IMG/VR virus record: IMGVR_UViG_2617270968_000003
Coordinates: 1-16,694 of that record
Origin: a virus
Taxonomy: Duplodnaviria; Heunggongvirae; Uroviricota; Caudoviricetes
Length of the DNA: 16,694 nt
Direction: 5' to 3' (one strand)
This document shows positions 1 to 15,958 of this stretch, piece by piece (positions within the stretch are counted from its first letter, which is position 1; the number at the start of each line of letters is the position of its first letter). The translations under genes and the position numbers were made by a program. The notes under the pieces are model-generated. The model did no database searches, was not told the origin of the DNA, and was given only the letters and a program-made list of their open reading frames with translations.

Positions 1-267
1 GATGACCGTTTGGGCTACTTCGTTAATCACGATATGGCGGGGGATGAGGTGCCGGTTCATGCGGATATCCCAAAACAGGAGGGGATTTTCCTGGATGATA
101 CCGACCCCATATCCTCCCCGATGAAGGCCAAAGGTGTCGGTGAGCTGGGCCTGTGCGGCGTGAGCGCGGCTATCGCCAACGCGGTGTATAACGCCACCGG
201 TATTCGGGTACGGGATTATCCCATCACTCTGGATAAGCTGCTCGATAAGCTGCCGGATGTGGTTTAA
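1..267 (+). CDS. paoC: Xanthine dehydrogenase-family molybdopterin-binding subunit (PaoC/YagR-like), C-terminal end; 5' part lies outside window
   Basis: Open frame from nt 1 ending at stop 265-267; C-terminal sequence ...GVGELGLCGVSAAIANAVYNATGIRVRDYPITLDKLLDKLPDVV matches remembered PaoC/XDH C-terminus; followed 9 nt later by paoD with strong SD. Confidence 0.7.
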   Translation, partial: DDRLGYFVNHDMAGDEVPVHADIPKQEGIFLDDTDPISSPMKAKGVGELGLCGVSAAIANAVYNATGIRVRDYPITLDKLLDKLPDVV

Positions 268-276
268 GGAGGAACA

Positions 277-1233
277 ATGTCATACCCGCTTTTTGACAAA
301 GACGAACACTGGCATAAGCCAGAGCAGGCGTTTCTCACCGATGACCACCGGACCATTCTGCGCTTCGCCGTAGAGGCGCTAATGTCCGGTAAAGGAGCGG
401 TGCTGGTGACGCTGGTGGAGATACGCGGCGGCGCGGCGCGCCCGCTCGGGGCGCAGATGGTGGTGCGCGAAGATGGTCGTTACTGCGGTTTTGTCTCTGG
501 CGGCTGCGTGGAGGCCGCTGCCGCTTTTGAAGCGCTGGAGATGATGGGCTCAGGCCGCGATCGCGAAATTCGCTATGGCGAAGGTTCGCCGTGGTTTGAC
601 ATCGTTCTGCCCTGCGGCGGTGGGATCACGCTGACGCTCCATAAACTACGCTCGGCACAGCCTCTGCTCGCCGTGCTGAACCGCCTGGAACAGAGAAAAC
701 CGGTGGGGCTGCGCTACGATCCGCAAGCACAATCGCTGGTGTGCCTGCCCACGCAAACCCGGACGGGCTGGAATCTCAATGGCTTTGAGGTGGGGTTCAG
801 GCCATGCGTCAGGCTGATGATTTACGGACGTTCTCTTGAGGCGCAGGCAACCGCGAGTCTTGCAGCAGCCACAGGCTATGACAGCCATATCTTCGATCTT
901 TTTCCGGCCTCAGCCAGCGCTCAGATCGATACCGATACGGCGGTCATTTTGCTGTGCCATGATCTCAACCGGGAGCTGCCAGTGTTGCAGGCCGCGCGAG
1001 AAGCAAAACCCTTTTATCTCGGCGCATTGGGCAGCTATCGAACCCACACGTTACGTCTGCAAAAGCTCCACGAGCTGGGATGGTCCAGGGAGGAAACAAC
1101 GCAAATCCGGGCACCCGTCGGGATATTCCCCAAAGCCCGGGATGCGCATACTCTGGCACTCTCCGTGCTGGCAGAAGTCGCCTCTGTACGTCTCCATCAG
1201 GAGGAGGATTCATGCCTGCCCCCGTCGTCCTGA
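277..1233 (+). CDS. paoD: XdhC/CoxI-family molybdenum cofactor insertion chaperone (PaoD/YagQ-like), 318 aa
   Basis: ATG at 277 preceded by AAGGAGG; 318 aa, the length of E. coli PaoD; GC-rich codon usage; genomic context after paoC. Confidence 0.8.
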   Translation: MSYPLFDKDEHWHKPEQAFLTDDHRTILRFAVEALMSGKGAVLVTLVEIRGGAARPLGAQMVVREDGRYCGFVSGGCVEAAAAFEALEMMGSGRDREIRYGEGSPWFDIVLPCGGGITLTLHKLRSAQPLLAVLNRLEQRKPVGLRYDPQAQSLVCLPTQTRTGWNLNGFEVGFRPCVRLMIYGRSLEAQATASLAAATGYDSHIFDLFPASASAQIDTDTAVILLCHDLNRELPVLQAAREAKPFYLGALGSYRTHTLRLQKLHELGWSREETTQIRAPVGIFPKARDAHTLALSVLAEVASVRLHQEEDSCLPPSS

Positions 1234-1622
1234 TCCTTGCGGCCGGGCGTGGAGAGCGCTTTCTCGCCTCCGGGGGAAATACCCATAAGTGTATCGGCTG
1301 GCGTCAGTCCCCGGAGGTTGCGCCTTATCGCTGGCCATTTGAAGAAAACGGGAGAACTTTCGACCTTGCGATTGAACCGCAGATTACGACTAATGATCTG
1401 CGTCTGATGTTGAGGCTGGCTCTTGCCGGCGGAGGAATAACAATTGCCACTCAGGAAACTTTCAGGCCATATATTGAAAGCGGTAAGCTTGTATCGCTGC
1501 TTGATGACTTTCTTCCACAATTTCCGGGCTTCTATCTGTATTTCCCACAGCGTCGCAATATTGCACCAAAGCTCCGCGCCCTGATTGACTACGTCAAAGA
1601 ATGGCGGCAGCAATTGGCTTAA
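1212..1622 (+). CDS. yagP: YagP-like 136-aa ORF: short nucleotidyltransferase-like N-terminus (MPAPVVLILAAGRGERF) fused to a LysR-type substrate-binding domain C-terminal fragment; probably a gene remnant
   Basis: ATG at 1212 with GAGGAGGA SD, overlapping the paoD stop; 136 aa equals remembered length of K-12 YagP; C-terminal half resembles a LysR effector-domain tail; no HTH N-terminus. Confidence 0.55.
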   Translation: MPAPVVLILAAGRGERFLASGGNTHKCIGWRQSPEVAPYRWPFEENGRTFDLAIEPQITTNDLRLMLRLALAGGGITIATQETFRPYIESGKLVSLLDDFLPQFPGFYLYFPQRRNIAPKLRALIDYVKEWRQQLA

Positions 1623-1746
1623 ATGTCTGCACCTGCACTGCCTGATGTCAGAACAGTATTTTGATGAATTGCCAAGGTTACAATGGCACAAATACGGCAC
1701 AGGAGGAAACGTGGTGTATTTAAATATGGGGTAACTCTTTGATTTT

Positions 1747-3276
1747 AATGGTGCCGATAATAGGAGTCGAACCTACGACCTTCGCATTACGAATTATAAG
1801 AATCCACTTCTAATTCAAAGCATTACCCCATCAACACTGCGCTCACACGTCCCACCACATCAAAACATGTAAAGCCTTGCAAGCCATTGTGAGGCCTTAT
1901 GTGTCTCAGTTTTGTCCCACCTTGTATTACGACTTGCATAGCCAATGAAGATCAACGTGACGACAAACGGCGCAGCAGTCTTCTTTTCCTTCATACTTTC
2001 CCCAATCAGCATACATACTTTCTACCATAACTGTAGTGAATGTCTGTTATGAGCGAGCAAAAGAGATTCAATTACCGGGGAATTACTCCGACATAAGCTC
2101 TCCCAGAAACACCGGAACAGCGATTCGCATATTCTCTTCTATACTTTCAGTCTGACCGGCTGGAGATTTCATAGCAAGAAAATGGATGCGCCAAGACCTA
2201 TGCGGGAAAGAGGCTGAGGAAATAATTGCCGATAGCACTGTGCCCGCCGAAAAGTTATCTGGCACGCAATGACGCGCGTCCTTGGGGCATCAGGAATCAG
2301 AGAGCCAACTTAACAACCCATTATATATTATTTAACCGGACCGTTACATGTACAAAGTTCAATGATTAGTGATTCTGTGACGCCACATACAACCTAAGCC
2401 CCTGATATAAAACCAGTCTATGCAACACCTAAAAATCATATATGATAGGGTGATAAGTCAACGCGCAGTATAAAAATCAAGCTAAAAAATGCTTTCAGCA
2501 TAGTGAATCTATTTCACACTACATAATTAAGGATGAAAAAATGACTGCACCAGTAATTAGTTTTATCAATATGAAAGGTGGGGTTGGTAAAACAACTTTA
2601 TGCGTTGGGATTGCTGAGTTTTTAGCCAACCATATGGGGCGCAAGGTTCTAGTTATCGATATTGATCCTCAATTTAATGCCACTCAGTCCTTAATGGGGC
2701 ATTATGATCGAGTAGAAGAATATATGACTGCCCTTCGCCCTAATAATCAAACCATTCGAAAGATTTTTGAGCTTCCAAATTCATTAATGGAAGATGAAAA
2801 GAAAGTGACACCAGAACAGGTCATTACTAAAGTTTCAGACAATCTTGATATTATCTTAGGTGATATAAACATTATCTTTGATACTAACCAAGAGGGTATT
2901 AGAATAAAAATGTTGCGTAAATTCATCACCGAAAATGACTTAAAAGAAAGTTACGACTATATCTTTATCGATAGCCCCCCAACAATCTCATTATTTACAG
3001 ATACCGCACTCCTTGCTTCTGATTATTATCTTACTCCGGTTAAAATTGATCACTACTCGGTGCTTGGAGCAAGCAGTTTAAATAGCGTTATAAGAAATAT
3101 GCGCACACATCATGAGAAAGAAATCAAGCAAGTCGGTTACATTTATACAAACACTGATGCTGAAATGACCAATAAAACAAGGGAAATTAAAGAGCAATTC
3201 GAAAACCATACTCAATTTACAAATTTTTATTTCTTTGAAAATCAATTAACCTACGTGCGTGATTTAATGGTAGGTT
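1747..3276. repeat. Direct repeat copy 1 (about 1530 bp) of the element's left end: att fragment, 745-bp leader, 5' 736 nt of ParA-like gene
   Basis: Matches 15165..16694 at offset 13,418; verified by eye at both ends and at internal points; two 60-aa ORF translations in the track are identical between copies. Confidence 0.85.
1749..1794 (-). other. 46-nt 3' fragment of tRNA-Thr(CGU) (thrW-type) - attachment-site copy (ptwF-like tRNA pseudogene), copy 1
   Basis: Plus strand reads TGGTGCCGATAATAGGAGTCGAACCTACGACCTTCGCATTACGAAT, the reverse complement of a tRNA 3' end (CCA, acceptor stem, T-arm GGTTCGACTCC, anticodon loop with CGT); similarity stops where the 5' half of a tRNA should be, so the gene is partial. 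Confidence 0.8.
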
Positions 3277-3386
3277 ATCAAGGGAATATTCCTTCTTGTT
3301 ATTCAAAGTCACGCCAAGATATAGAAAAGATCTGTAACGAATTTATTAACAGAGTGGCTCACTTGGAAGGTAACACAAATGAATAA
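2541..3386 (+). CDS. ParA/MinD/Soj-family P-loop ATPase (deviant Walker A), 281 aa; first gene of a three-gene operon
   Basis: N-terminal ISFINMKGGVGKTT (KGGxGKT deviant Walker A), VIDIDPQ, IFIDSPP (ParA-type Walker B region); ATG at 2541 with AAGGA SD 7 nt upstream; AT-rich. Confidence 0.85.
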   Translation: MTAPVISFINMKGGVGKTTLCVGIAEFLANHMGRKVLVIDIDPQFNATQSLMGHYDRVEEYMTALRPNNQTIRKIFELPNSLMEDEKKVTPEQVITKVSDNLDIILGDINIIFDTNQEGIRIKMLRKFITENDLKESYDYIFIDSPPTISLFTDTALLASDYYLTPVKIDHYSVLGASSLNSVIRNMRTHHEKEIKQVGYIYTNTDAEMTNKTREIKEQFENHTQFTNFYFFENQLTYVRDLMVGYQGNIPSCYSKSRQDIEKICNEFINRVAHLEGNTNE

Positions 3387-3777
3387 ACAATTAATTAAAG
3401 CGCTCAATAAAGCTAACAATATGCCCATGACCAAAGAAAACTTCTTAGGCTTGGTAATTATGTTGATTCTTTCAAAAGAGGTTTTTAGATCAAATTTTGA
3501 TGTTAGTAAATTTATTAACAAAACCTTCAAAATATCTTTTTTGAATTATGCTGTACGGTCAAGAACTTTGATGTGCGCTAAAATTTGCAAACATATTAAT
3601 GAATTAAGTGAGAATGACATAAAGATGGCTTATACGCATTTCTTAAACAACATTAACACATTAGACATTATTTTTAATGATGCAAATAAAACAAGCCAAA
3701 AATCCACATCTAAAAGCAAGCATGCTATAAGGAATTTAAATATTTGGATTAATGCAAATAAAAAGGAAGAAGAATAA
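3379..3777 (+). CDS. Hypothetical protein, 132 aa, Lys/Asn-rich; second gene of the ParA-like operon
   Basis: ATG at 3379 overlaps the ParA stop by 8 nt (ATGAATAA) with GGAAGG SD; same AT-rich composition; no motif I can assign. Confidence 0.6.
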   Translation: MNKQLIKALNKANNMPMTKENFLGLVIMLILSKEVFRSNFDVSKFINKTFKISFLNYAVRSRTLMCAKICKHINELSENDIKMAYTHFLNNINTLDIIFNDANKTSQKSTSKSKHAIRNLNIWINANKKEEE

Positions 3778-4442
3778 TGCTCACGCAGGATCCCTTCAAC
3801 ATTGGAAGAGATGTAAATTATTTTAGAGCGGAGGTGCAAAAGCACCTCAGAACCACTGATGAAATAAACAAATCAGTATCAATATTTAGGCAAATAAGTC
3901 TTTGTAATACAATTTTAAGTCACAATCCTAATCTAAATCACTCTTCTTATATAAAAGGTTTTATATATGATACCTTAAACTCCTTAATTGCCATTATAAA
4001 AAAAAGAGAACGGTATCTCCAACTGAACTTCCGCTCAATGGTGGAGCATGTGGCCAGAATAAGCCTCAATAAGAACTACAATGGTGGGGATTTTGACCAA
4101 ACTGTACGTCGTAGAGACTTTGACTTCTTAAAAGCCCAACAAGTCGATGAAGGCTGGTCTTATTTACATAATGTCTATATCAACGCCTGTTATTATGTTC
4201 ACTCCTCCCCCCAAGCGAACCTAAATGTTACATCAACATTTATATCACTTATGGAGGGAGATTGTAATTCAACACAGCATAAAATGGTGAAAAAACTTCA
4301 TGAGGTAGTATCGGCGCTGATGAGAATCATTATAAAGTATTATCATCAGCATATCTCAAACATTTTCTTTAGAAACAAAAAGGATTTAGAGAAAATAATG
4401 GGAAAAAGCCTTTATTCATATTATACCAGCTTAGACAATTAA
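3777..4442 (+). CDS. Hypothetical protein, 221 aa; third gene of the ParA-like operon
   Basis: ATG at 3777 overlaps the previous stop (TAATG) with AAGGAAGA SD; AT-rich; no recognisable domain by eye. Confidence 0.6.
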   Translation: MLTQDPFNIGRDVNYFRAEVQKHLRTTDEINKSVSIFRQISLCNTILSHNPNLNHSSYIKGFIYDTLNSLIAIIKKRERYLQLNFRSMVEHVARISLNKNYNGGDFDQTVRRRDFDFLKAQQVDEGWSYLHNVYINACYYVHSSPQANLNVTSTFISLMEGDCNSTQHKMVKKLHEVVSALMRIIIKYYHQHISNIFFRNKKDLEKIMGKSLYSYYTSLDN

Positions 4443-4479
4443 TTCTCTCATATTCATTGCGTAGAGCATAAATATCTAT

Positions 4480-4900
4480 CTAACCACCTAAAATGCCAGA
4501 AAATCTAGTTGTATACCGGTGCGAAAATATCTCGCGTTTCATCTGCCACTGCTGCTGAATGCCCTGCCCAGCGAAACAGAGTGTTTCCTTCCCGTCTTTT
4601 GCGTTGAGGTGCTCCAGCACGCTCATTAACTTTTCGCTCCCAGGACCCAGCGCGTTATCGTCGAATAGGTTAGGGCATGCTCTGACTGAAGAAGTCCCCC
4701 AGCATTACCCCGGCTTTCTGATATCGGTGTCCGTCTTTCCATATTGCATCCAGACTCCCCGTTGCTACTGCAATGATATCCCGACTGTCCTGTGTCGGGA
4801 TGAGCAGCTTCACCGACGCGTTGTTACAGTAGTACGACTCGTTCAACGCAAAGGGTATCGTGTAAAACCGATGATGACACTGCCGGCAATCAGCACTGAC
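4480..4900 (-). pseudogene. umuC: 3' remnant of a umuC-like Y-family (Pol V) translesion polymerase gene; frameshifted and truncated
   Basis: Minus-strand translation gives ...PFALNESYYCNNASVKLLIPTQDSRDIIAVATGSLDAIWKDGHRYQKAGVMLGDFFSQ, then after a frameshift NLFDDNALGPGSEKLMSVLEHLNAKDGKETLCFAGQGIQQQWQMKREIFSHRYTTRF, closely matching the remembered C-terminal ~140 aa of E. coli UmuC; no intact ORF, N-terminal 2/3 absent. Confidence 0.75.
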
Positions 4901-5372
4901 GTCAGCAAACGTGAGAAAGAACAGATAAGCCGAACGATTTAGGAAATGTTTGAAGAGACTGATATGTGGATGGTTTCAGTTTAAACGCCTTGAACCGTCA
5001 TATTACCTAAGTACAATCCGCTGTGACTGGCAATCATTCAATACTTGCACTATCAAAAGTGCATCAGCCAACCGCAGCACGTCTTGCATACGACCTGTCT
5101 GCGGTTTCAATCACCTCTCACCACCAGTCCCATCAATAATAATTAAACAGCGCCTAAACAAAATAAATAACAACAAGTCAACAACCTCGACAGGATGCCG
5201 ATGGGATGATGAAGAGATAAGAAAGAATAACTAGTAAAGCCCTAAAACGTCAGCGTTCAGACGCGTTTTTTACTTAACCGGTAACAAATACGTTGTATCA
5301 TAGCAACATAAAATGATTGTTCTAAATCAGATTAACTCCTCACTTTTGTACAATGTCGCTTACAGGTATACC

Positions 5373-7262
5373 ATGAAATCCGAGACGCTAACTGTCCAAC
5401 AACTTTTTCAAGACCGCCGACAATACTGTGTTCCATTCTATCAACGTGCCTATGTATGGACTCAGCGAAACCAATGGTCAGCTCTACTGGAGGATATCCT
5501 AGAGAAAGCACAATCCCGGCTCTCGGGTACAAAACCAACTCCCCATTTCCTTGGTGCAGTTGTACTGGAACCTCAACCAAAAAAAGGATTATTCGGTGTA
5601 GATTCCATACATATTATTGATGGTCAGCAACGATTGACCACTCTTCAATATGTTCTGGCATCCATCCGATTAGCATTACGTGCAACAGATCTTTCCAACT
5701 TAGAGCCTCTCATTTCGTCTTGCCTGAAAAACTCAAACGAAGACACAATGCGAAATAAAGAAGTAGAGCGCTTCAAACTGTGGCCAACTTTTCGGGATCA
5801 AACTCATTTTATTCAAAGTTTTAATGTTGAAAATATTGACGATATCCGGAATGTATTCTCTGATAGTTTCACGCAGCATGGTACGTTGCGTAAGCATTTT
5901 AATCACCCGCCATCACTAGAAGCATTATGTTTTTTTACTGAAGCCTTTATAAAGTGGATTAAAATAGAAAATCACTCACCACGAGAAAATGCTGTAGCAT
6001 TAATTGAGGCTGTCTTGACGGATCTGAAACTAGTAAGCATATTTCTCGAGGCTGAAGATGACGCTCAAATAATTTTTGAAACATTAAATGGCAGAGGTGC
6101 GGAACTTCATGCCACAGATCTTATTCGCAATTATATTTTTATGTGCGCTGAACATGAAAATATTAATGCTGTTGAATTATATGAGAATGAGTGGAAGATC
6201 TTTGAAGATACGTACTGGTCAGAAAGACAACGTCGTGGTCGTATTAATAAACCACGCATGGAGTGGCTAGTGCATGCAACATTGCAATCAGAAAGGCAAC
6301 GTGAAATCGATCTGTCTCGTCTTTACAATGAGTATCGTGATTATGTAAGTAAGGACTTGCCTTCACAACGAGCAGATCTGCAAGTAAAGCGCCTCAAACA
6401 ATATGCATCACAATATAAAGAATTGGTTGGTGGTTTTGGCACAACCCCCATCTCACACTTTGGACATCGCATCGCAGCCTATGATGTGACGACACTTTAT
6501 CCGCTTGCTTTGTTCATTTCGATAGCTAACATCGCCGATGATGAGAAAGCAGCCATGTATAATGATCTTGTCTCCTACGTAGTACGAAGAGCCGTATGTG
6601 GCCTGACGCCAAAGAATTACAACAATGTATTTATGAATGTATTGCGGCACTTGTCTAAAACAGAAATTTCCAGTGTTGAGTTACGTAATATCCTCAATAG
6701 CTTAAATGGCGAAGCCTCACGTTGGCCTGGGGACTCAGAATTTCTCAACGCTTGCATCAATGCTCCACTTTATCCTGGCAGGCTCGACGCACCGAAAATG
6801 CGCTCAATGTTAACGGAACTTGAAAGAGAACTTTGTCGCCAAGTGAAGACAGAGAAGCCTGATGTTCCAAATCTTTCTAACCTCGATATCGATCATCTTA
6901 TGCCTCAAAGTTGGTATTCCTGTTGGCCTCTCGAAAATGGTCATATGGTGACAAATTCAGATGCTACGGTATTGAACCAAATTGTTCTGTCTGGAACCGA
7001 TCTTACCCCAGAACAGCTACTGGTAAGGAAACGGCAACAAGCGATAGCTACGTTGGGAAATCTAACTTTGCTTAACCTTAGCGTAAACCGTTCTGTTCAG
7101 AATGCTGTATTTCTGAAAAAACGTGATGCTCTCATCGTCCACACCAATCTACGACTGAACATTCCACTTATAGTTAAGGATAAATGGGATGAGGATGAAA
7201 TCCTGGAGCGGGGTAAAATGTTGGGGGAAATTGCATTGAAAGTATGGCCAAAACACGATTAA
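5373..7262 (+). CDS. GmrSD-family type IV (modification-dependent) restriction endonuclease: N-terminal DUF262 (ParB-like NTPase) + C-terminal DUF1524 (His-Me finger nuclease)
   Basis: DUF262 signatures VPFYQRAYVW and IIDGQQRLTT; C-terminal DIDHLMPQSW ... LGNLTLLNLSVNRSVQNAVFLKKR typical of DUF1524; about 630 aa. Start taken at 5373 (MKSETLT, weak AGG SD); in-frame ATG at 5313 is possible. Confidence 0.8.
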   Translation: MKSETLTVQQLFQDRRQYCVPFYQRAYVWTQRNQWSALLEDILEKAQSRLSGTKPTPHFLGAVVLEPQPKKGLFGVDSIHIIDGQQRLTTLQYVLASIRLALRATDLSNLEPLISSCLKNSNEDTMRNKEVERFKLWPTFRDQTHFIQSFNVENIDDIRNVFSDSFTQHGTLRKHFNHPPSLEALCFFTEAFIKWIKIENHSPRENAVALIEAVLTDLKLVSIFLEAEDDAQIIFETLNGRGAELHATDLIRNYIFMCAEHENINAVELYENEWKIFEDTYWSERQRRGRINKPRMEWLVHATLQSERQREIDLSRLYNEYRDYVSKDLPSQRADLQVKRLKQYASQYKELVGGFGTTPISHFGHRIAAYDVTTLYPLALFISIANIADDEKAAMYNDLVSYVVRRAVCGLTPKNYNNVFMNVLRHLSKTEISSVELRNILNSLNGEASRWPGDSEFLNACINAPLYPGRLDAPKMRSMLTELERELCRQVKTEKPDVPNLSNLDIDHLMPQSWYSCWPLENGHMVTNSDATVLNQIVLSGTDLTPEQLLVRKRQQAIATLGNLTLLNLSVNRSVQNAVFLKKRDALIVHTNLRLNIPLIVKDKWDEDEILERGKMLGEIALKVWPKHD

Positions 7263-7284
7263 TGCAATTAATAAAATGATTATA

Positions 7285-7310
7285 GCGGCCTTACATTAGT
7301 AAGGCCGCTA
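7285..7310 (+). terminator. Stem-loop downstream of the GmrSD gene (11-bp perfect stem AGCGGCCTTAC / GTAAGGCCGCT, 4-nt loop)
   Basis: Perfect inverted repeat 23 nt after the stop; trailing sequence only moderately T-rich, so may act as terminator or RNA-stability hairpin. Confidence 0.55.
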
Positions 7311-7512
7311 CTCACTATTAAATCCTTTAATTTGCAACAAGAACAGCAGTGTCAGCCCTAGGTTTCGGACTTTGTACCGCTTATCTTGTCTTCAAAAATC
7401 AGCTCGCATCCTGCACAGCTCAACGCATTACGTTGTAGATCGGTGTTCTGGTCATTTGTTGATACGCGTACATAGCCAATAAGCATGGTAGATCCCCCTG
7501 ACAAAAGCAGGA

Positions 7513-8085
7513 ATGATGCCATTTGCTCGTTATTTCTGCATTTTCATAAACGTTGGTTTGGGAGAAGGTGCTCCAGCTATTGGCGTTCCGTTCTTCTGGC
7601 CGTCCGCCGCAATGCCAAATACTGTAATCGACAGTTGGTCCAGTATGGTGTTTTTGAAGTTCAACGGCGCGAAATTCTCTGCCACTGATTACCCTGTGCT
7701 GGCGAAAGTGTTTCCGGCGCTAGCATTACCTGACGCACGGGGTGATTTCATTCGTATCTGGGATGATGGGCGCGGGATTGATGTCGGACGTACCCTACTT
7801 TCAGGGCAATCACACACAATTATGGATCATGCACACAATATGGAATTGTGGACGGGGGACGGGCTTGCCGCAGGAAGTGCACGGGAAGGAGTAAACCCAG
7901 GAATACTGGCTACATACGGTGACGGGGGAATAGTTAAAACGGACGAACCCGGTCTTAAGGTGCCTTCCTCACTACGAGCTCTTAGCTCTCGTAGTGTTAA
8001 ACGTTATGGTGAAATTAGTGGAAATGTAGATACAGAAACCCGTCCACGAAATATTGCATTTAACTTTCTGGTGAGGGCTAAATAA
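7513..8085 (+). CDS. Phage tail-fibre C-terminal fragment (tail-collar domain), 190-aa ORF; probably a remnant
   Basis: PFFWP...MPNTVIDSW...NGAKFSATDYPVLAKVFP...LPDARGDFIRIWDDGRGID fits the phage tail-collar pattern; C-terminal ...ETRPRNIAFNFLVRAK is tail-fibre-like; no N-terminal anchoring region and no other structural genes nearby. Confidence 0.5.
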   Translation: MMPFARYFCIFINVGLGEGAPAIGVPFFWPSAAMPNTVIDSWSSMVFLKFNGAKFSATDYPVLAKVFPALALPDARGDFIRIWDDGRGIDVGRTLLSGQSHTIMDHAHNMELWTGDGLAAGSAREGVNPGILATYGDGGIVKTDEPGLKVPSSLRALSSRSVKRYGEISGNVDTETRPRNIAFNFLVRAK

Positions 8086-8146
8086 TGATACCTGTTTTTG
8101 ATGAAAATGGGCTGGCTACAGTGCCGGGCGATATGCGTTGTTTTTA

Positions 8147-8320
8147 TTATAATGCAGTATCCCCTTCACAACGGTGAGCCACACGCCCACTCTGACGTAA
8201 CTTGCTTGCTGACTGCTGAACGCGCTGCCGCGAGTAACCAGCAAAAGCATCCGCAATGTCTCCGGAAGTACACCCCGGATTGGCTTCAATGAATTTCTGA
8301 ACGTCATTTAACAGACTCAT
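8147..8320 (-). CDS. Small hypothetical protein (57 aa), possible winged-helix DNA-binding protein, coupled to the replication gene
   Basis: ATG at 8320 lies 2 nt after the TGA stop of the upstream gene, with an AGGGGG SD; translation MSLLNDVQKFIEANPGCTSGDIADAFAGYSRQRVQQSASKLRQSGRVAHRCEGDTAL; under 60 aa so absent from the ORF track. Confidence 0.4.
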   Translation of the reverse strand: MSLLNDVQKFIEANPGCTSGDIADAFAGYSRQRVQQSASKLRQSGRVAHRCEGDTAL

Positions 8321-8322
8321 GA

Positions 8323-9264
8323 TCACCCCCTGAATCCTGCCGGGATCTGGCTGTAGTCCACGTTGTCGTAACTGGCTTTGAAGTACGGGTCTTCACGTTT
8401 TTCTGTGTGCGTGCTGACGGACGGCGATAAGCGCAGGGAAAGCTCATCCCATTTTTCCCGCAACTTCGACGGGCTGAGCACGTTACGGCACCAGAACGGA
8501 TCGCGGCTGACGCGGCTGTACATCTCGCAGATTTGTTTGTGAGTACGACCATCCTGCACACACATCAGGCGAATTTCGTTTGCCCAGGCTGTCCAGTTAG
8601 GTTCTTTGGGACGAACCACCTCGCCGTCACATTCGGCGGCCTGCTCGTACAGGGCGATGATTTTTTTCCAGAGCCACTGTGCGCAGGTCAAATCATCCTG
8701 CGTTCCCCACTGGCGCTTTTTAGAGCTGAATACAACCGCATCAGGATGACGAGTTAAAAAATCCTGTTCATCCTTCTTCATGTCCGGTTGCGAAGCGTCC
8801 GGACGAGAAGTTTTTTTATCTGACGGATCATGTTTTGATTTTACTGACGGATCCCCGCCAGATTCTGACGGGTGAAAACCCGCTTTTTTGCCAGATTTCG
8901 ACGCATCAAATTTTGACGGGTCAGATTTTGATGCGTCAGATTTTGACGGGTCAGAATCTGACAGTTGAGAAAATGCCGCTGCCTGAAGCTTCGCAACGTT
9001 AAGCTGATAAACATTCGACGCATTGCGGTTACCCTGGCGACGCGCCTTACGCGTTAACCAGCCTTCTGCTTCCAGCCGTGCGATAGCCGTTCTGACGGTA
9101 CTCATCCCCGCGCCAATCTGGCGGGCAATGGTTTCAATTGATGGCCAGCACACACCTTCGTCATTACTGAAATCAGCCAGGCGGGCCATAATTGCCACGC
9201 TGGATAACTTCATGCCTGACGCAGCGCAACCATCCCATACATAGCCGGTTAATTTAGTGCTCAT
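8323..9264 (-). CDS. Phage replication initiation protein (lambda O-like: N-terminal winged HTH, pentapeptide-repeat linker, C-terminal domain), 313 aa
   Basis: N-terminus LSSVAIMARLADFSNDEGVCWPSIETIARQIGAGMSTVRTAIARLEAEGWLTRKARRQGNRNASNVYQLN resembles replication-initiator wHTH domains; GAGG SD before ATG at 9264; position after cro/CII genes on the same strand. Confidence 0.65.
   Translation of the reverse strand: MSTKLTGYVWDGCAASGMKLSSVAIMARLADFSNDEGVCWPSIETIARQIGAGMSTVRTAIARLEAEGWLTRKARRQGNRNASNVYQLNVAKLQAAAFSQLSDSDPSKSDASKSDPSKFDASKSGKKAGFHPSESGGDPSVKSKHDPSDKKTSRPDASQPDMKKDEQDFLTRHPDAVVFSSKKRQWGTQDDLTCAQWLWKKIIALYEQAAECDGEVVRPKEPNWTAWANEIRLMCVQDGRTHKQICEMYSRVSRDPFWCRNVLSPSKLREKWDELSLRLSPSVSTHTEKREDPYFKASYDNVDYSQIPAGFRG
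8861..8964. repeat. Imperfect tandem 15-bp repeats (GATTTTGACGGGTCA-like, about 6 units) inside the replication-initiator gene, encoding DPSKS/DASKS pentapeptide repeats
   Basis: Units at 8861, 8894, 8909, 8924, 8939 and a partial one at 8954; protein shows SDSDPSKSDASKSDPSKFDASKSGKK. Confidence 0.8.
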
Positions 9265-9273
9265 GACCGACCT

Positions 9274-9612
9274 CTATTTCCCTGAATTTACGACGAAACT
9301 GTTCGAGCGGGCTGAAGCACTCATGCTCATAGCCTTCGCGGAGGTAGATAACCCGTTGTGTTTCCGGCTCCCAACGAATGACTCTGACGGGTACTCCGTA
9401 GTGATCTTTGAACCAGCGGTTAACTTGTCGCAAAGGACTGTCTCCTTCTGCCGGTTGAAATCACCCACAGCCCACTCTGCAAAGCTGTGGGTTACAATTT
9501 CCCTGTCACCTGGTACATTCACTGCATAGCAATATTCCACCTTCGCTTTTCCACCCGGTACAGGAAGCGCAATCAGTTGCGAGCGACGGTAGTGTGTTGT
9601 TAAACTGTTCAT
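9274..9612 (-). CDS. Hypothetical protein, 112 aa, between CII-like and replication genes
   Basis: ATG at 9612 overlaps the CII-like stop as ATGA; GGAGA SD 9 nt upstream; stop 9 nt before the next gene's SD. Contains a 9-bp perfect hairpin at 9463..9492. No recognisable domain. Confidence 0.45.
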
Positions 9613-10178
9613 GCGTTAGTTTCTCCACAACCAGAAGCAATCGACGCCACGACGCCCGGAGCTGCACACTCGCGGGCGTCATTACTTTCTGAAATGCAAA
9701 AAATTTTGTAAACAAGTGCTGCATGCTCCTGCAGCTTCGAAATTGAGAGATACAGCTCGTCGTTAATTGCTGTCTTCTCATGCGGTTCCACTACACCGTC
9801 TTCGATTGCTGAACGAATCTGTTTTGAATAACTGCCGATCTGTTCAATGACTTCCAGCAGACGCTGGTTAATATCGGCGTTGTCCACATCCTCGACGTCA
9901 GGAAGAGACACAAAGACGCCATTTGCAGACTGCGCCACAGCATCAGCAATGAAGTGAGTGCCACCAGCACGCTGTAAAACCATTGCCCATCCCAGCGGGA
10001 AAATCTGATCGCCATCTGCACGAAGGCGGTTGAATAAAGCGTTTTCTGTTACATCGAGCCAGTCAGCCGCTTCAGCGTAACCACCCGGCAACGCCGCGAT
10101 AGTTTTTCTGACAGCTTTCACGTACCACTCAGGCTGTTTTTCTATTTTCCAGTGATGCTTACCCACGATTAGCCTCAT
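9609..10178 (-). CDS. Phage regulatory protein, CII-like (CP76/YdaT-like family), 189 aa
   Basis: Immediately downstream of the cro-like gene on the same strand, as lambda cII is; size and context fit the enterobacterial prophage CII-like family; family assignment is from memory. Confidence 0.5.
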
Positions 10179-10209
10179 CGTTCTGTGGTTAAAAATTGAA
10201 AGTGTTCTG

Positions 10210-10410
10210 CTAATCTTTCGGATAGATATCCGGTCTTAAGTCAGATTTCGTAATTGCACCTGACGTGCATTGCTCAAGTTTTTTAGCCAGCACAAAACTG
10301 GCTTTTTTATAGCCATTGAAAACCAGCCGTAAGTAGCCAGGTGTTGAGCCAACTTTTCCGGCCAACTCGCCCTGCTGTTCTTTGGTTAAAGAGTCCCAAT
10401 ACGATTTCAT
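10210..10410 (-). CDS. Cro/YdaS-like HTH transcriptional regulator, 66 aa
   Basis: ATG at 10410 with GGAGG SD 9 nt upstream; MKSYWDSLTKEQQGELAGKVGSTPGYLRLVFNGYKKASFVLAKKLEQCTSGAITKSDLRPDIY resembles Cro/YdaS-type HTH proteins; divergent from the cI-like gene. The longer 167-aa ORF in the track is an upstream extension without SD. Confidence 0.65.
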   Translation of the reverse strand: MKSYWDSLTKEQQGELAGKVGSTPGYLRLVFNGYKKASFVLAKKLEQCTSGAITKSDLRPDIYPKD

Positions 10411-10500
10411 ACGATATGTACCTCCGGTGTACATATTACATGATTGAAATGAACCTTCAAGATACTTGTACCTTAACGGTACAAGGGTTTTAATTTCGTT
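10411..10500. promoter_or_regulatory. Divergent cI/cro intergenic control region with two palindromic operator-like sites
   Basis: Inverted repeats ATGTACCTCCGGTGTACAT (10416..10434) and CTTGTACC-TTAAC-GGTACAAG (10465..10485), both built on TGTACC/GGTACA half-sites, between divergent repressor and cro-like starts. Confidence 0.6.
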
Positions 10501-11175
10501 ATGAAAACAATCCATGACATCCGGCGGTCTAACGCCAGAAAACTGAGAGATGGTGTTGGCGGGAATTCTTCCTTTGCCACTATGATTGATCGCGAGCCAA
10601 CCCAGACCAGCAGGTTTATGGGAGATGGTGCTACTAAAAATATCGGTGACAGCATGGCACGACACATCGAAAAATGTTTCGACCTGCCTGTCGGATGGCT
10701 CGATCAAGAACACCAGACAACGAACATCACAAAAAAACCTGATGTTTCAATCACTAATAAACAAATCACATTAGTCCCTGTCATATCATGGGTACAGGCC
10801 GGAGCATGGAAAGAAGTTGGATATTCTGAGGTTGATTTGAGCACAGCAGAAACGTATCCCTGCCCTGTACCCTGTGGGGAAATGACTTATATCTTGCGGG
10901 TGATAGGTGATTCAATGATTGATGAGTACCGCCCGGGAGACATGATTTTTGTCGATCCTGAAGTACCTGCCTGCCACGGTGACGACGTTATTGCATTGAT
11001 GCACGATACAGGTGAAACCACCTTCAAAAGGTTGATAGAAGATGGGACACAGCGTTATCTCAAAGCGTTAAACCCAAACTGGCCTGAGCCTTACATTAAG
11101 ATCAACGGTAATTGCTCTATAATTGGAACTGTGATTTTCTCAGGAAAACCAAGAAGATACAAAATCAAAGCCTAA
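10501..11175 (+). CDS. CI-like phage repressor with C-terminal S24 (LexA-like) autopeptidase domain, 224 aa
   Basis: C-terminal VIGDSMIDEYRPGDMIFVDP...GDDVIA (S24 Ser site GDSM, later Lys); divergent from cro-like gene; no SD upstream of the ATG, so possibly leaderless like lambda cI from PRM. Confidence 0.75.
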   Translation: MKTIHDIRRSNARKLRDGVGGNSSFATMIDREPTQTSRFMGDGATKNIGDSMARHIEKCFDLPVGWLDQEHQTTNITKKPDVSITNKQITLVPVISWVQAGAWKEVGYSEVDLSTAETYPCPVPCGEMTYILRVIGDSMIDEYRPGDMIFVDPEVPACHGDDVIALMHDTGETTFKRLIEDGTQRYLKALNPNWPEPYIKINGNCSIIGTVIFSGKPRRYKIKA

Positions 11176-11187
11176 TCAATGTTTATG

Positions 11188-11210
11188 AACCTGCTTCGGC
11201 AGGTTTTTTT
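11188..11210 (+). terminator. Rho-independent terminator after the cI-like gene
   Basis: AACCTGC-TTCG-GCAGGTT hairpin followed by TTTTTTT, 13 nt after the stop. Confidence 0.75.
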
Positions 11211-11214
11211 ATAC

Positions 11215-11243
11215 TTGACAATGTACCCTTGAGATACATAATG
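11215..11243 (+). promoter_or_regulatory. Sigma70-like promoter (TTGACA, 17-nt spacer, ATAATG) overlapped by two direct AATGTACCC repeats
   Basis: TTGACA at 11215..11220 and CATAAT/ATAATG at 11237..11243; the repeats share the TGTACC half-site seen in the cI/cro operators. Confidence 0.5.
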
Positions 11244-11323
11244 TACCCAAGAGAAACAACAAACAGGCAGAACGCCCACGAAGTAGCCGCCTGGGGCATA
11301 TGAAGTCCAGGATGATTCGTTAG

Positions 11324-11351
11324 CAACAAAAAAGCGCCCTACAGGACGCTT
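11324..11351 (-). terminator. Rho-independent terminator on the minus strand (8-bp stem with one G-U, UGUA loop, U-run)
   Basis: Minus strand reads AAGCGUCC-UGUA-GGGCGCUU followed by UUUUUUGUUG; on the plus strand the hairpin lacks a U-run. Confidence 0.55.
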
Positions 11352-11409
11352 AGCTCTTTAACAATCTGGTCCCCATCAACAAGTAACTGATAACTTGAGG
11401 AGGTGTGAA

Positions 11410-11616
11410 ATGCACAAAACAGAACCCAAAATCGTCGCGCCCGGATACACAAATGAGGAAATTTACGAGTGGATGGCAAAGAAGCTGGCAGCTATAAACC
11501 AGCTTCGTGAAGTGCTGTCTTATCGACAGGAAATAATAGACTCCTTAAAAAAACTGGATCAGGAAATCACGGTTTTATCACAGGATGTTACTTTAGATAT
11601 TGTGCAGACAAATTAG
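11410..11616 (+). CDS. Small hypothetical protein, 68 aa
   Basis: ATG at 11410 with GAGGAGGTG SD; coiled-coil-like composition; 3' end overlaps the convergent 144-aa gene by 29 nt. Confidence 0.5.
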   Translation: MHKTEPKIVAPGYTNEEIYEWMAKKLAAINQLREVLSYRQEIIDSLKKLDQEITVLSQDVTLDIVQTN

Positions 11617-12022
11617 GATCCCATTCATTTTCGTCAAAATCATCAAAGTGATGAATTTGTGATCTCCAGTCTCGATAATCTAAAAATTTCTGGGCGGTTA
11701 CGCTTATTTTATCAAGTGTGAGTTCATCCTGAATTGAAAGAAGAAGTTCATCAAATTTCATCTCATTAATCTGTTTTGGCATCCAGTGATGCTTCATCAG
11801 AATAAGGTGAACCAGAGCCTTTTTCCCATTCAACTGATTATAGGGAGTGCCGAATTTCTTCCGGTGCTCATGTAAGACAAGGTCCAGAAGAGTAAGTAAT
11901 GTTGCCCTTGATTCGACTTTGCTTATTTCGACTGATGACACTACCCCACTGATTTCAATGCCCCGATACTTTCCAACATTTTCACAGTGGGATTTGTACA
12001 GCGTGTAGATATTACCGGACAT
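11588..12022 (-). CDS. Hypothetical protein, 144 aa; orphan accessory gene in the immunity region
   Basis: ATG at 12022 with AAGGAAAAG SD; AT-rich; no recognisable domain; sits where lambdoid phages carry rex/sie-type exclusion genes. Confidence 0.55.
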   Translation of the reverse strand: MSGNIYTLYKSHCENVGKYRGIEISGVVSSVEISKVESRATLLTLLDLVLHEHRKKFGTPYNQLNGKKALVHLILMKHHWMPKQINEMKFDELLLSIQDELTLDKISVTAQKFLDYRDWRSQIHHFDDFDENEWDPNLSAQYLK

Positions 12023-12099
12023 TTCTTTTCCTTTTGCGTTGTTGGGGATAACCAGATTAACCGAATCCTTGTTGTTGGGGAATAACCAGGTCCACCTCG

Positions 12100-12500
12100 C
12101 CTGATGTGGCTAAAAGCAGGCACATAACAGCTAAGTATTTTCAACCAGAGAGAATCCTTAGCGTTGTGGTGAATGCGGCTCAGCGCACGCGGGTTAAGGT
12201 TGAGGCTGACAGTCGACCTTCTGTGGATACCTACCCGCCTGGTGTGCAACCTTCGCCAGGCACCGGGAGGCACCCGGCACCACAACTTTATGCTGTGTGT
12301 AGTCCTGGCGGTACCAGTTTGTACCCTTGCTTCCGGCTGGTACCGTCCTTTTTACAAAACAGAGAAGAGCATCACCGGACGACGGGCTCATAACCCAATC
12401 CATCCGGGCGGCTGCCACCGCAGGTGTTCTTCTCTGTTTTGTGGAGAAACTAACCGCCCCTGCGGGGGCATCTATTGAAACGTAATTGACTCAATAATCG
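12100..12500. other. GC-rich, hairpin-dense non-coding block upstream of the early operon; candidate structured RNA and/or operator region
   Basis: ORFs open in several frames on both strands (typical of GC-rich non-coding DNA); 15-bp perfect inverted repeat 12354..12368 / 12428..12442; 9-bp hairpin 12309..12317 / 12337..12345; further GC hairpins at about 12237..12262, 12263..12280 and 12456..12470. Confidence 0.4.
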
Positions 12501-12567
12501 CCGGATGGTGAGGGCTTCCTTTTCCCAAAATTCAGCGCGGTGCAGCGCATATAAAGTGGAGAACGAA

Positions 12568-13104
12568 ATGTCATTTATTAAAACTTTTTCCGGGAAGCAT
12601 TTTTATTATGACAAGATAAATAAAGACGACATCGTTATTAACGATATCGCGGTTTCCCTTTCAAATATCTGCCGCTTTGCCGGTCATCTTTCTCACTTCT
12701 ACAGCGTCGCCCAACATGCGGTGCTTTGCAGCCAGCTGGTGCCGCAGGAATTTGCTTTTGAAGCTTTAATGCATGATGCAACAGAAGCATATTGCCAGGA
12801 CATCCCCGCACCACTGAAACGACTTCTTCCTGACTATAAACGGATGGAAGAAAAAATAGACGCCGTAATCCGTGAGAAATACGGGTTACCTCCTGTTATG
12901 AGCACGCCAGTGAAATATGCCGATCTCATTATGCTGGCAACCGAACGCCGCGATCTCGGGCTTGATGATGGCTCTTTCTGGCCTGTGCTGGAAGGTATCC
13001 CGGCAACAGAGATGTTCAACGTGATTCCACTGGCTCCAGGCCATGCCTACGGGATGTTTATGGAACGCTTTAACGAATTATCGGAGTTACGCAAATGCGC
13101 ATGA
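12568..13104 (+). CDS. HD-domain metal-dependent phosphohydrolase (YfbR/YfdR-like 5'-deoxynucleotidase family), 178 aa
   Basis: H...HD...D pattern (SVAQHAV, LMHDATEAY, QDIP); ATG at 12568 with GGAG SD; the track's 12505 start has no SD. Confidence 0.65.
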   Translation: MSFIKTFSGKHFYYDKINKDDIVINDIAVSLSNICRFAGHLSHFYSVAQHAVLCSQLVPQEFAFEALMHDATEAYCQDIPAPLKRLLPDYKRMEEKIDAVIREKYGLPPVMSTPVKYADLIMLATERRDLGLDDGSFWPVLEGIPATEMFNVIPLAPGHAYGMFMERFNELSELRKCA

Positions 13105-13457
13105 ATGTTTTCGAAATGGAAGGGTTTCTTCGTGGGAGATGTGTACCGCGAGATCTGAAAGTGAATGAAACGGATGCTGAATACCTAGTGCGTAAATTCG
13201 ATGCGCTTGAAGCTAAATGTGCAGCACAGGAAAACAAAGTAATACCAGTGTCAACTGAACTGCCACCAGCAAATGAAAGTGTTTTGTTATTCGATGCTAA
13301 CGGAGAAGGCTGGCTAATTGGCTGGCGTTCTCTCTGGTACACCTGGGGACAAAAAGAAACCGGAGAATGGCAGTGGACATTTCAGGTCGGGGACCTTGAA
13401 AACGTCAATATCACTCACTGGGCAGTAATGCCAAAAGCACCGGAGGCTGGAGCATAA
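13095..13457 (+). CDS. DUF551-like phage protein, 120 aa
   Basis: Trp-rich C-terminal half (GWLIGWRSLWYTWGQ...WQW...THWAVMP) typical of DUF551 prophage proteins; start overlaps the HD gene stop; GGAG SD. Confidence 0.5.
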   Translation: MRMNVFEMEGFLRGRCVPRDLKVNETDAEYLVRKFDALEAKCAAQENKVIPVSTELPPANESVLLFDANGEGWLIGWRSLWYTWGQKETGEWQWTFQVGDLENVNITHWAVMPKAPEAGA

Positions 13458-13762
13458 TGACCACTTTTACCGACAAAGAACTGATTAAAGAAATTAAAGA
13501 GCGTATCAGCAGCCTTGACGTGCGAGACGATATTGAGCGCCGTGCTTATGAAATCGCACTCCTATCTCTGGAAGTAGAACCAGATGAACGCGAAGCTTAT
13601 GAATTATTCATGGAAAAGCGTTTTGGTGACTTAGTAGATCGTCGGAGAGCAAAAAACGGCGATAACGAATACATGGCATGGAATATGACTCTCGGTTGGA
13701 TCGTCTGGCAGCAACGAGCTGGTATCCATTTCTCAAAAATCTCACAGCAAGAGGTGAAATAA
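13457..13762 (+). CDS. Hypothetical phage protein, 101 aa
   Basis: ATG overlaps the previous stop (TAATG); stop overlaps the xis start (TAATG); part of a coupled operon. Confidence 0.5.
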   Translation: MTTFTDKELIKEIKERISSLDVRDDIERRAYEIALLSLEVEPDEREAYELFMEKRFGDLVDRRRAKNGDNEYMAWNMTLGWIVWQQRAGIHFSKISQQEVK

Positions 13763-14112
13763 TGGAGCCATACAGCCTCACACTCGATGAGGCCTGTCAT
13801 TTTCTCAAGATATCCAGACCGACTGCCATTAACTGGATACGCACAGGGCGTCTTCAGGCAACACGCAAAGATCCCACTAAGAATAAATCTCCTTACCTCA
13901 CAACACGACAAGCCTGCATTGCGGCTCTTCAGTCTCCGCTGCATACTGTCCAGGTGAGCGCGGGTGATGGCATAACAGAGGAAAGAAAATGTCACTCTTC
14001 CGCAGAGGTGAAATATGGTACGCCAGTTTCACATTGCCGAACGGTAAAAGATTTAAACAGTCTCTTGGAACAAAGGACAAAAGGCAGGCGACAGAACTCC
14101 ATGACAAGCTAA
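13762..14112 (+). CDS. xis: Excisionase (Xis/AlpA-type HTH), 116 aa, overlapping the integrase start
   Basis: [37 protein letters not shown] matches the excisionase-family HTH pattern; GAGGTG SD before ATG at 13762; 3' 124 nt overlap the integrase in another frame. Confidence 0.65.
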
Positions 14113-15152
14113 AGGCTGAAGCATGGCGGGTCAGCAAACTTGGTGAAATACCTGATATAACGTTCGAGGAAGCGTGTGTCAGGTGGCTTGAAGAGAAAGC
14201 ACATAAAAAATCACTGGACGATGACAAAAGCCGGATCGGATTCTGGCTTCAACATTTCGCAGGAATGCAACTAAGAGACATTACTGAATCAAAAATTTAT
14301 TCAGCAATGCAGAAAATGACGAACCGGCGTCATGAGGAAAACTGGAGACTCAGGGCAGAAGCATGCAGAAAAAAAGGGAAACCTGTTCCAGAATACACGC
14401 CAAAACCAGCGTCCGTTGCAACGAAGGCTACGCATCTTTCATTTATAAAGGCCCTACTAAGAGCCGCAGAGCGTGAATGGAAAATGCTGGATAAGGCACC
14501 AATTATTAAAGTGCCTCAACCAAAGAATAAACGGATCCGCTGGCTGGAGCCCCATGAAGCACAAAGGCTGATTGATGAATGTCCGGAGCCATTAAAGTCT
14601 GTTGTTGAATTTGCACTGGCAACAGGTTTAAGACGCTCGAACATCATCAACCTTGAATGGCAACAAATAGATATGCAGCGCCGGGTGGCATGGATAAACC
14701 CGGAAGAGAGTAAATCAAACCGCGCAATTGGCGTTGCGCTGAATGATACTGCATGTCGCGTATTGAAAAAACAAATCGGGAATCATCACCGTTGGGTATT
14801 TGTGTACAAGGAAAGCTGTACCAAACCAGACGGAACGAAAGCGCCAACAGTAAGGAAGATGCGGTATGACGCAAACACAGCCTGGAAAGCGGCGCTGAGA
14901 CGGGCTGGTATTGATGATTTCAGATTTCACGACTTGAGACACACCTGGGCAAGTTGGCTGGTTCAAGCCGGAGTCCCGTTGTCAGTGTTACAGGAAATGG
15001 GAGGCTGGGAGTCTATCGAAATGGTTCGTCGATATGCTCACCTTGCACCTAATCACCTTACCGAACACGCACGGCAAATAGACTCGATCCTGAACCCATC
15101 GGTCCCAAATTTGTCCCAGTCAAAAAATAAGGAAGGTACTAATGATGTGTAA
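13989..15152 (+). CDS. int: Tyrosine-type site-specific recombinase (phage integrase), 387 aa
   Basis: N-terminal arm-binding-like [34 protein letters not shown]; C-terminal catalytic [12 protein letters not shown] ... MVRRYAHL (R-H-R-Y); ends 14 nt before the tRNA-fragment att copy. Confidence 0.85.
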
Positions 15153-15166
15153 CTTATTGATTTAAA

Positions 15167-15212
15167 TGGTGCCGATAATAGGAGTCGAACCTACGACCTT
15201 CGCATTACGAAT
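15167..15212 (-). other. 46-nt 3' fragment of tRNA-Thr(CGU), attachment-site copy 2, directly after int
   Basis: Identical to the fragment at 1749..1794; again followed by element-left-end sequence instead of the tRNA 5' half. Confidence 0.8.
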
Positions 15213-15958
15213 TATAAGAATCCACTTCTAATTCAAAGCATTACCCCATCAACACTGCGCTCACACGTCCCACCACATCAAAACATGTAAAGCCTTGCAA
15301 GCCATTGTGAGGCCTTATGTGTCTCAGTTTTGTCCCACCTTGTATTACGACTTGCATAGCCAATGAAGATCAACGTGACGACAAACGGCGCAGCAGTCTT
15401 CTTTTCCTTCATACTTTCCCCAATCAGCATACATACTTTCTACCATAACTGTAGTGAATGTCTGTTATGAGCGAGCAAAAGAGATTCAATTACCGGGGAA
15501 TTACTCCGACATAAGCTCTCCCAGAAACACCGGAACAGCGATTCGCATATTCTCTTCTATACTTTCAGTCTGACCGGCTGGAGATTTCATAGCAAGAAAA
15601 TGGATGCGCCAAGACCTATGCGGGAAAGAGGCTGAGGAAATAATTGCCGATAGCACTGTGCCCGCCGAAAAGTTATCTGGCACGCAATGACGCGCGTCCT
15701 TGGGGCATCAGGAATCAGAGAGCCAACTTAACAACCCATTATATATTATTTAACCGGACCGTTACATGTACAAAGTTCAATGATTAGTGATTCTGTGACG
15801 CCACATACAACCTAAGCCCCTGATATAAAACCAGTCTATGCAACACCTAAAAATCATATATGATAGGGTGATAAGTCAACGCGCAGTATAAAAATCAAGC
15901 TAAAAAATGCTTTCAGCATAGTGAATCTATTTCACACTACATAATTAAGGATGAAAAA

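Follow-up and report, generated by a model that had tools for sequence, protein, structure and literature searches.

RemAIN was reportedly described by Sargen and Helaine in 2024 (Cell Host Microbe 32:2063) from the Gifsy-1 prophage of Salmonella Typhimurium 14028s. Here we compare with it an operon of three genes at positions 2541-4442 of a stretch of DNA of 16,694 nucleotides (nt), called the window throughout, which comprises positions 1 to 16,694 of the IMG/VR virus record IMGVR_UViG_2617270968_000003 (Caudoviricetes) and whose source is the thrW tRNA site of an Escherichia coli chromosome. The operon is very probably a diverged member of the RemAIN family, whose three-protein modules are expressed by a prophage in the lysogen and stop rival phages.

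In the papers that cite it, remAIN is a cluster of three genes, STM14_3218-3220, located in the Gifsy-1 immunity region of S. Typhimurium 14028s (Bosma et al. 2025, PMC12724215), and its parts are an ATPase, RemA, an immunity protein, RemI, and a HEPN tRNase, RemN (PMC13043305, PMC12724215, PMC12409363). RemN is presented there as a tRNA-cleaving anticodon nuclease (PMC12626290, PMC12409363) that cuts tRNA anticodon loops, with RemI as its immunity protein and RemA as the ATPase of the same functional unit. The complete system is described as stopping the lytic cycles of co-resident prophages as well as those of incoming phages (PMC12724215).

To tie these names to sequence we used the remAIN cloning primers listed in Table S2 of Bosma et al. 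2025 (PMC12724215). Their gene-specific parts match a Salmonella lambdoid prophage locus (L006) exactly, one at 6769-6787 on the plus strand, ending 5 nt into the first gene, and the other at 8657-8679 on the minus strand, spanning the stop codon of the third. The amplicon contains exactly three open reading frames (ORFs), which encode a ParA-like protein of 279 amino acids (aa; 6783-7622) and proteins of 128 aa (7615-8001) and 220 aa (8001-8663); these are our primer-verified reference genes. In this prophage the triplet belongs to the immunity region and lies immediately behind the repressor gene, in the place of lambda rexAB.

BLASTP aligns each protein of the window operon over its full length with its counterpart from the Salmonella locus, at 65% identity for RemA (1e-141), 32% for RemI (8e-22) and 49% for RemN (6e-88). 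Because the primers match exactly and all three proteins are homologous from end to end, we assign the window operon to the RemAIN family as a diverged member. The two loci share gene order, overlapping starts and protein sizes (279/128/220 aa in Gifsy-1 and 281/132/221 aa in the window), both are prophage-borne, and both encode a ParA-type ATPase, a small helical protein and a HEPN-fold protein with the motif RSM[VI]EH. They differ in host (Salmonella and E. coli, respectively), in sequence, which has diverged strongly and most of all in RemI, and in setting: the Gifsy-1 genes stand directly behind the repressor gene, whereas the window operon occupies the b-region by attR and has an AT-rich leader of its own. 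A megablast search with the Salmonella remAIN DNA found no match in 5,426 complete E. coli genomes.

The gene-for-gene homology with RemAIN supports one proposal of a first-pass annotation made from the sequence without database searches, namely that the prophage carries the operon among its cargo as a defence or exclusion module. The same annotation had considered that the system might be undescribed, knowing no named system of that composition; this has to be withdrawn, as the triplet matches RemAIN, named in 2024. PADLOC gives no match for the system because version 2.0 (2023) predates RemAIN.

The operon and its three proteins

All three genes lie on the plus strand. The remA-like gene (A; 2541-3386) encodes a ParA/MinD-type ATPase of 281 aa, the remI-like gene (B; 3379-3777) an all-helical protein of 132 aa, and the remN-like gene (C; 3777-4442) a HEPN-fold protein of 221 aa. 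remA and remI overlap by 8 nt (ATGAATAA) and remI and remN by 1 nt (TAATG), and every start is preceded by a purine-rich stretch resembling a Shine-Dalgarno (SD) sequence (AAGGA, GGAAGG and AAGGAAG, respectively). ORF coordinates and SD-like stretches are both in line with the first-pass description of three tightly coupled genes, each with its own SD, and the AT-richness noted there is also evident, the operon having a GC content of 0.33 against 0.447 for the whole window and 0.47 for the prophage core. The AT-rich leader upstream of remA (2314-2540, plus strand) is the presumed promoter region and contains only weak sigma-70-like matches; a promoter scan of this leader scored no better than shuffles. 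Regions upstream of the triplet in different elements do not align with one another, and a search for a promoter or operator travelling with the cassette found none.

Ratios of nonsynonymous to synonymous substitution rates (dN/dS) range from 0.02 to 0.10 for remA and remN (0.03-0.07 for remA alone) and from 0.11 to 0.20 for remI. Since they are low in all three, these are real coding genes under purifying selection. By the same measure remI evolves 2 to 5 times faster than remA and remN, and in one pair of close variants the amino-acid identity is 82% for B, compared with 97% for A and 91% for C. We infer that RemI is the fast-evolving, specificity-bearing part of the system.

The 281-aa protein matches Pfam AAA_31 (7.9e-38), CbiA (7e-17) and PHROG 164 (2e-57), and its nearest solved structures are Soj/ParA. 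Its deviant Walker A motif KGGVGKT (residues 12-18), DIDPQ and Walker B motif IFIDSPP are kept in all full-length homologues, which upholds its original classification as a ParA/MinD ATPase with a deviant Walker A; the NCBIfam model ParA_partition stays below its cut-off (77 bits against 180). A match to PDC-M28B covers the P-loop only and was discarded. remA has been disrupted independently in three lineages, with remI and remN intact in each: by IS903B in E. coli SCEC020023 (L052, 1742-3653), by IS1 in Dickeya (L008, 6003-7620) and by a frameshift in Erwinia sp. S63 (L004, 8767-9607). Because remA can be broken while remI and remN stay intact, RemA is not needed to keep RemN harmless, and we dropped the idea that RemA is the antitoxin on the same observation. 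remA emerges as the component most often lost, and the pattern suggests that lineages tolerate, or even benefit from, losing the ATPase.

The 132-aa protein has no family match in Pfam, NCBIfam or PADLOC 2.0 and falls into phrog_6264 (7e-25), a PHROG of unknown function. Its conserved core consists of Y57, S61-R62-T63-L64 and A67 and is followed by a disordered basic linker (residues 98-114) and a C-terminal helix with an invariant W123. It has neither a helix-turn-helix (HTH) nor a ribbon-helix-helix (RHH) fold, and no similarity to ParB. One match, to PD-T4-2_B (E 0.003 over 40 residues), was not taken as real. By homology, the protein is probably an immunity protein that restrains the nuclease.

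That nuclease would be the 221-aa protein, a predicted tRNA anticodon nuclease effector. Its HEPN fold carries an invariant R86-S87-x2-E90-H91 (the Rx4H motif) together with Y134/H142; across the entire family the invariants are R86, E90, Y134 and H142 only. The first-pass annotation could not assign it to any family; Pfam, NCBIfam and PADLOC 2.0 return no match, and its one assignment is to phrog_7540 (6e-77), again of unknown function. A profile search against PDB sequences gave no match, a Foldseek search of the model against the PDB gave nothing significant, and there is no sequence match to solved HepT proteins. A HepT/MntA (HEPN-MNT) toxin-antitoxin (TA) system was considered and rejected on that last result and on the lack of a nucleotidyltransferase domain in B or A. 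Searched exhaustively as a profile, the RemN-like protein has 103 representatives at 50% identity, of which nearly all are standalone proteins of about 215-235 aa.

Distribution of the triplet

Relatives of the RemN-like protein were gathered from genomes, metagenome assemblies and viral contigs. At the first 43 loci, those of close relatives of C, A and B are found directly upstream of C and in the same order in 43, the sole exceptions being loci at which A is cut away or shortened by a contig end or is itself disrupted; the triplet therefore recurs as a unit in other genomes, a point that the first-pass annotation had proposed to test. It is unsplit across 50 related loci inspected. Its locations, in groups that range from Enterobacterales to Firmicutes, are accessory sites of prophages and integrative elements, in slots otherwise associated with defence genes or morons: after cI, next to int/att, and beside GmrSD, SocA/Panacea and TIR-like genes. 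Carriers include e14-like E. coli prophages in which the triplet adjoins int/attP, a Pantoea phage in which it is a moron among structural genes, and islands resembling integrative and conjugative elements in Vreelandella, Yersinia, Erwinia and Dickeya. In another prophage (L012) the triplet directly follows a SocA/Panacea-domain gene pair (coordinates cited as 5505-6409 and 2835-3896) and lies near an N6/N4 DNA methyltransferase, a further indication that its neighbours are defence and toxin-antitoxin cargo.

Plasmids are a different matter. A tblastn search of C against 72,556 plasmid records returned 1 match, a 44.6-kb circular phage genome with an integrase. This record (L003, NZ_CP148393.1, pZ1323HEC0010-3) is labelled a plasmid and is a complete circular e14-like phage, with cI/cro, int and tail fibres, that carries a diverged RemAIN triplet right next to int. 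Among 50,697 phage records, blastn of the operon matched only the ParA P-loop region in phages of Lactobacillus and Lactococcus, and tblastn of C against phage records found no match.

Farther afield, low-GC contigs from IMG/VR (L044-L050), assigned to a Firmicutes type by gene content and a match to Javan1, carry the triplet between a prophage repressor and the integrase. Their ParA gene product is 39% identical to A (2e-65), and a 114-aa protein is homologous to B with an hhalign probability of 97.5%. One of these contigs (L048) has a 352-aa ORF between triplet and integrase that looks Abi-like by eye. In Streptococcus phage Javan1 itself (MK448665, L051) a ParA gene followed by a C homologue occupies 4731-6672, again between repressor and integrase; the two are separated by a B-sized gap (5654-5992) in which no gene is annotated.

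Within E. coli, 52 of the 5,426 complete genomes carry the window variant, with an identity of at least 99.6% and always in single copy. In most of these the matched stretch is annotated as a ParA gene, undisrupted, plus two hypothetical proteins. Four of the matches (H15-H18) contain an insertion sequence (IS), its location inside remA itself having been checked for SCEC020023 only. A second E. coli variant occurs in 16 more genomes and has diverged strongly, its global alignment with the window giving 58% identity for A, 38% for B and 37% for C.

The prophage remnant at thrW

The left part of the window contains paoD (277-1233) and then a LysR-type pseudogene. The att site that bounds the element on its cargo side (1749-1794, minus strand) is a 46-nt copy of the 3' end of thrW (tRNA-Thr), identical to the first 46 nt of the annotated tRNA-Thr in a related locus (L001); a second copy of the same 46-nt thrW end lies at 15167-15212. 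ARAGORN detects no complete tRNA in the window; the intact thrW must therefore be situated past its right end. What follows the att fragment is a decayed e14-like lambdoid prophage, a remnant of 13,418 bp whose integrase gene is at 13989-15152.

The operon stands at the cargo end of this degraded prophage, near att, in the b-region next to attR. Its placement directly inside the att site, as first annotated, is right in that the thrW fragment is there at 1749-1794, but about 750 bp containing a pseudogene of an SOS-response-associated peptidase (SRAP) intervene between it and the operon. Just downstream are a umuC remnant (DUF4113) and a DinI remnant; the pseudogenes around the operon comprise SRAP, umuC, dinI and a tail fibre gene. 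An intact GmrSD-family type IV restriction enzyme is encoded at 5313-7262 (Pfam GmrSD_N and GmrSD_C; PADLOC mREase_IV, E = 0), about 870 bp downstream of remN, and the cargo end of the prophage remnant therefore holds two defence systems. Both neighbours named in the first-pass annotation, the GmrSD gene and the umuC remnant, are thereby substantiated.

A feature missed in that annotation is a long repeat at the right end of the window. In a blastn comparison of the window with itself, the last 1,546 bases (15149-16694) repeat 1731-3276 at 99.8%, with 3 mismatches and no gaps, at a spacing of 13,418 bp. The repeat includes the att fragment, the SRAP remnant and the first 245 codons of remA; on translation, this second remA copy (15959-16694, plus strand) gives an identical protein up to the window edge, where it ends. 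It appears that the prophage remnant is tandemly duplicated, or else that a sister element lies behind it. Two copies of the operon in one genome were found in none of the 5,426 complete E. coli genomes.

Alternative readings, mechanism and significance

An operon that begins with a true ParA/Soj-type ATPase, complete in all its motifs, could be a partition or maintenance module in which ParA, together with a small adaptor that binds a centromere, segregates the element when it is excised or exists as a plasmid. The order of a small ParA ATPase followed by small proteins is that of type Ib ParA/ParB loci and of pSM19035 delta-omega-epsilon-zeta, in which a ParA gene also neighbours a toxin-antitoxin operon, and a near relative of the triplet resides on a 44.6-kb circular record labelled a plasmid. 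We nevertheless regard partition as very improbable. In those systems the small protein binds a centromere, whereas B has neither an HTH or RHH fold nor similarity to ParB; between 1700 and 5300 there is no repeat family of more than two copies and no parS-like array; and the third component of pSM19035 is the zeta kinase, that of the window a predicted HEPN nuclease. The supposed plasmid is the genome of a complete e14-like phage that encodes an integrase, no true plasmid carries the triplet, and the elements that do carry it integrate. The doubt that the first-pass annotation cast on a simple partition role, in view of the lack of a ParB-type partner, is well founded on all these grounds. 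The plasmid survey speaks equally to a second reading, that of a TA-like addiction system in which RemN is the toxin, RemI the antitoxin and RemA an accessory, stabilising the prophage or island with defence incidental or absent: addiction modules are common on plasmids, and the triplet is missing from 72,555 of 72,556. Formally an immunity protein and a nuclease do constitute a TA pair, and here their genes are translationally coupled, are often found beside integrases at the edges of elements, and have persisted in a prophage stripped of most other genes. The Salmonella homologue protects measurably against phages and blocks co-resident prophages (PMC13043305, PMC12724215), and we consider addiction an unlikely explanation.

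The operon might also be an inactive relic, its ORFs intact in appearance and no longer expressed or functional in a dying prophage. The genes surrounding it are pseudogenes, no convincing promoter was found, and IS elements disrupt remA in several E. coli strains. Yet all three ORFs are intact in the window, most of the 52 genomes that share it at 99.6% identity or more are annotated with an undisrupted ParA gene and two hypothetical proteins, and dN/dS values of 0.03-0.19 between close variants indicate recent purifying selection, so that this possibility, too, seems quite remote.

Assignment of the operon to RemAIN as an active defence module must itself be weighed against several observations. 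At the E. coli locus the function is predicted by homology: the operon would cleave tRNAs and thereby prevent rival phages and prophages from growing lytically. The host prophage is heavily decayed. Because RemI and RemN are only 32% and 49% identical to their Salmonella counterparts, the trigger and the tRNA specificity may differ. Most of the distant family members have another residue, usually N, in place of H91 of the Rx4H motif, and the active site may therefore not have the canonical (textbook Rx4-6H) form throughout the family. The roles given to RemA and RemI come from one-sentence descriptions in citing papers. Finally, remAIN supplied on a plasmid failed to restrict phage FO1 in Salmonella LT2 (PMC12724215), which suggests a dependence on host background.

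Several described systems combine some of the same elements as RemAIN. PrrC and RloC also couple an NTPase to a HEPN tRNA anticodon nuclease that stays silent until phage infection and then aborts phage growth by translation arrest; however, their ATPase is of the ABC type and is fused to the nuclease, whereas the ATPase of the window operon is a ParA/MinD-type protein on its own, and PrrC is kept inactive by a restriction-modification enzyme, while the inhibitor in RemAIN is a dedicated small protein. HepS (STM14_3211 of Gifsy-1) and Tha are likewise prophage HEPN RNases, constitutive in lysogens, that halt phage production, and HepS cuts tRNA anticodon loops, but both are single proteins activated directly by phage tail proteins and have no ATPase or immunity partner. 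HepS acts without RemAIN (PMC13043305). GiPD474, from Gifsy-1 of S. Typhimurium 4/74 (Bosma et al. 2025, PMC12724215), resembles RemA as a ParA/MinD-like ATPase (AAA_31) that resides in the Gifsy immunity slot and confers phage resistance. It differs, in a comparison with RemA by description only, in that a single 1,086-bp gene makes up the system, that the protein (about 361 aa) has an additional domain, and that it lacks RemI and RemN as partners. The same paper relates that in other Salmonella strains gipd474 replaces remAIN in the Gifsy-1 immunity slot and that gipd474 alone protects against FO1, Alf5 and T4 (PMC12724215); ParA-type ATPases are thus used in defence.

Under the RemAIN assignment, we envisage a mechanism along the following lines. 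Translational coupling would ensure that the three proteins are made together, which would fix their stoichiometry. RemI would hold RemN silent, as homology with the Salmonella system implies for the E. coli locus, and would serve as the specificity-bearing inhibitor. As a rival phage develops, RemA would act as an ATP-dependent switch of the ParA type, releasing or activating RemN. Freed RemN would then cut tRNAs, translation would halt, and no phage particles would be made. A more ambitious version is tentative and, in our judgement, rather doubtful: RemAIN could be an ancient prophage module spread across phyla and ranging from Enterobacterales and Halomonadaceae to prophages of the streptococcal and clostridial type, in which a nucleoid-binding ParA-type switch senses takeover of the nucleoid or phage DNA and a hypervariable RemI sets which phages trigger the response, with the E. 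coli variant responding to a trigger range of its own and perhaps cutting tRNAs of its own.

Identification of the family makes a defence system recognisable behind the annotation of a 'ParA family protein' and two 'hypothetical proteins', which about 1% of complete E. coli genomes and many Enterobacterales carry, and should end the misreading of such operons as partition genes. Gene order is one marker by which members can be recognised; others are the Y-x3-SRT-L-x2-A core and C-terminal W of RemI, and the motifs RS-x2-E[HN]-x2-R and Y-x3-C-x-[YF]-[VI]-H of RemN. The fast evolution of RemI and the frequent loss of remA bear on how phages are sensed and on what the system costs its host. The main value of the finding lies in the divergence of this variant, in the reach of the family across phyla, and in the role it would give a ParA-type ATPase in tRNA-cleaving defence.

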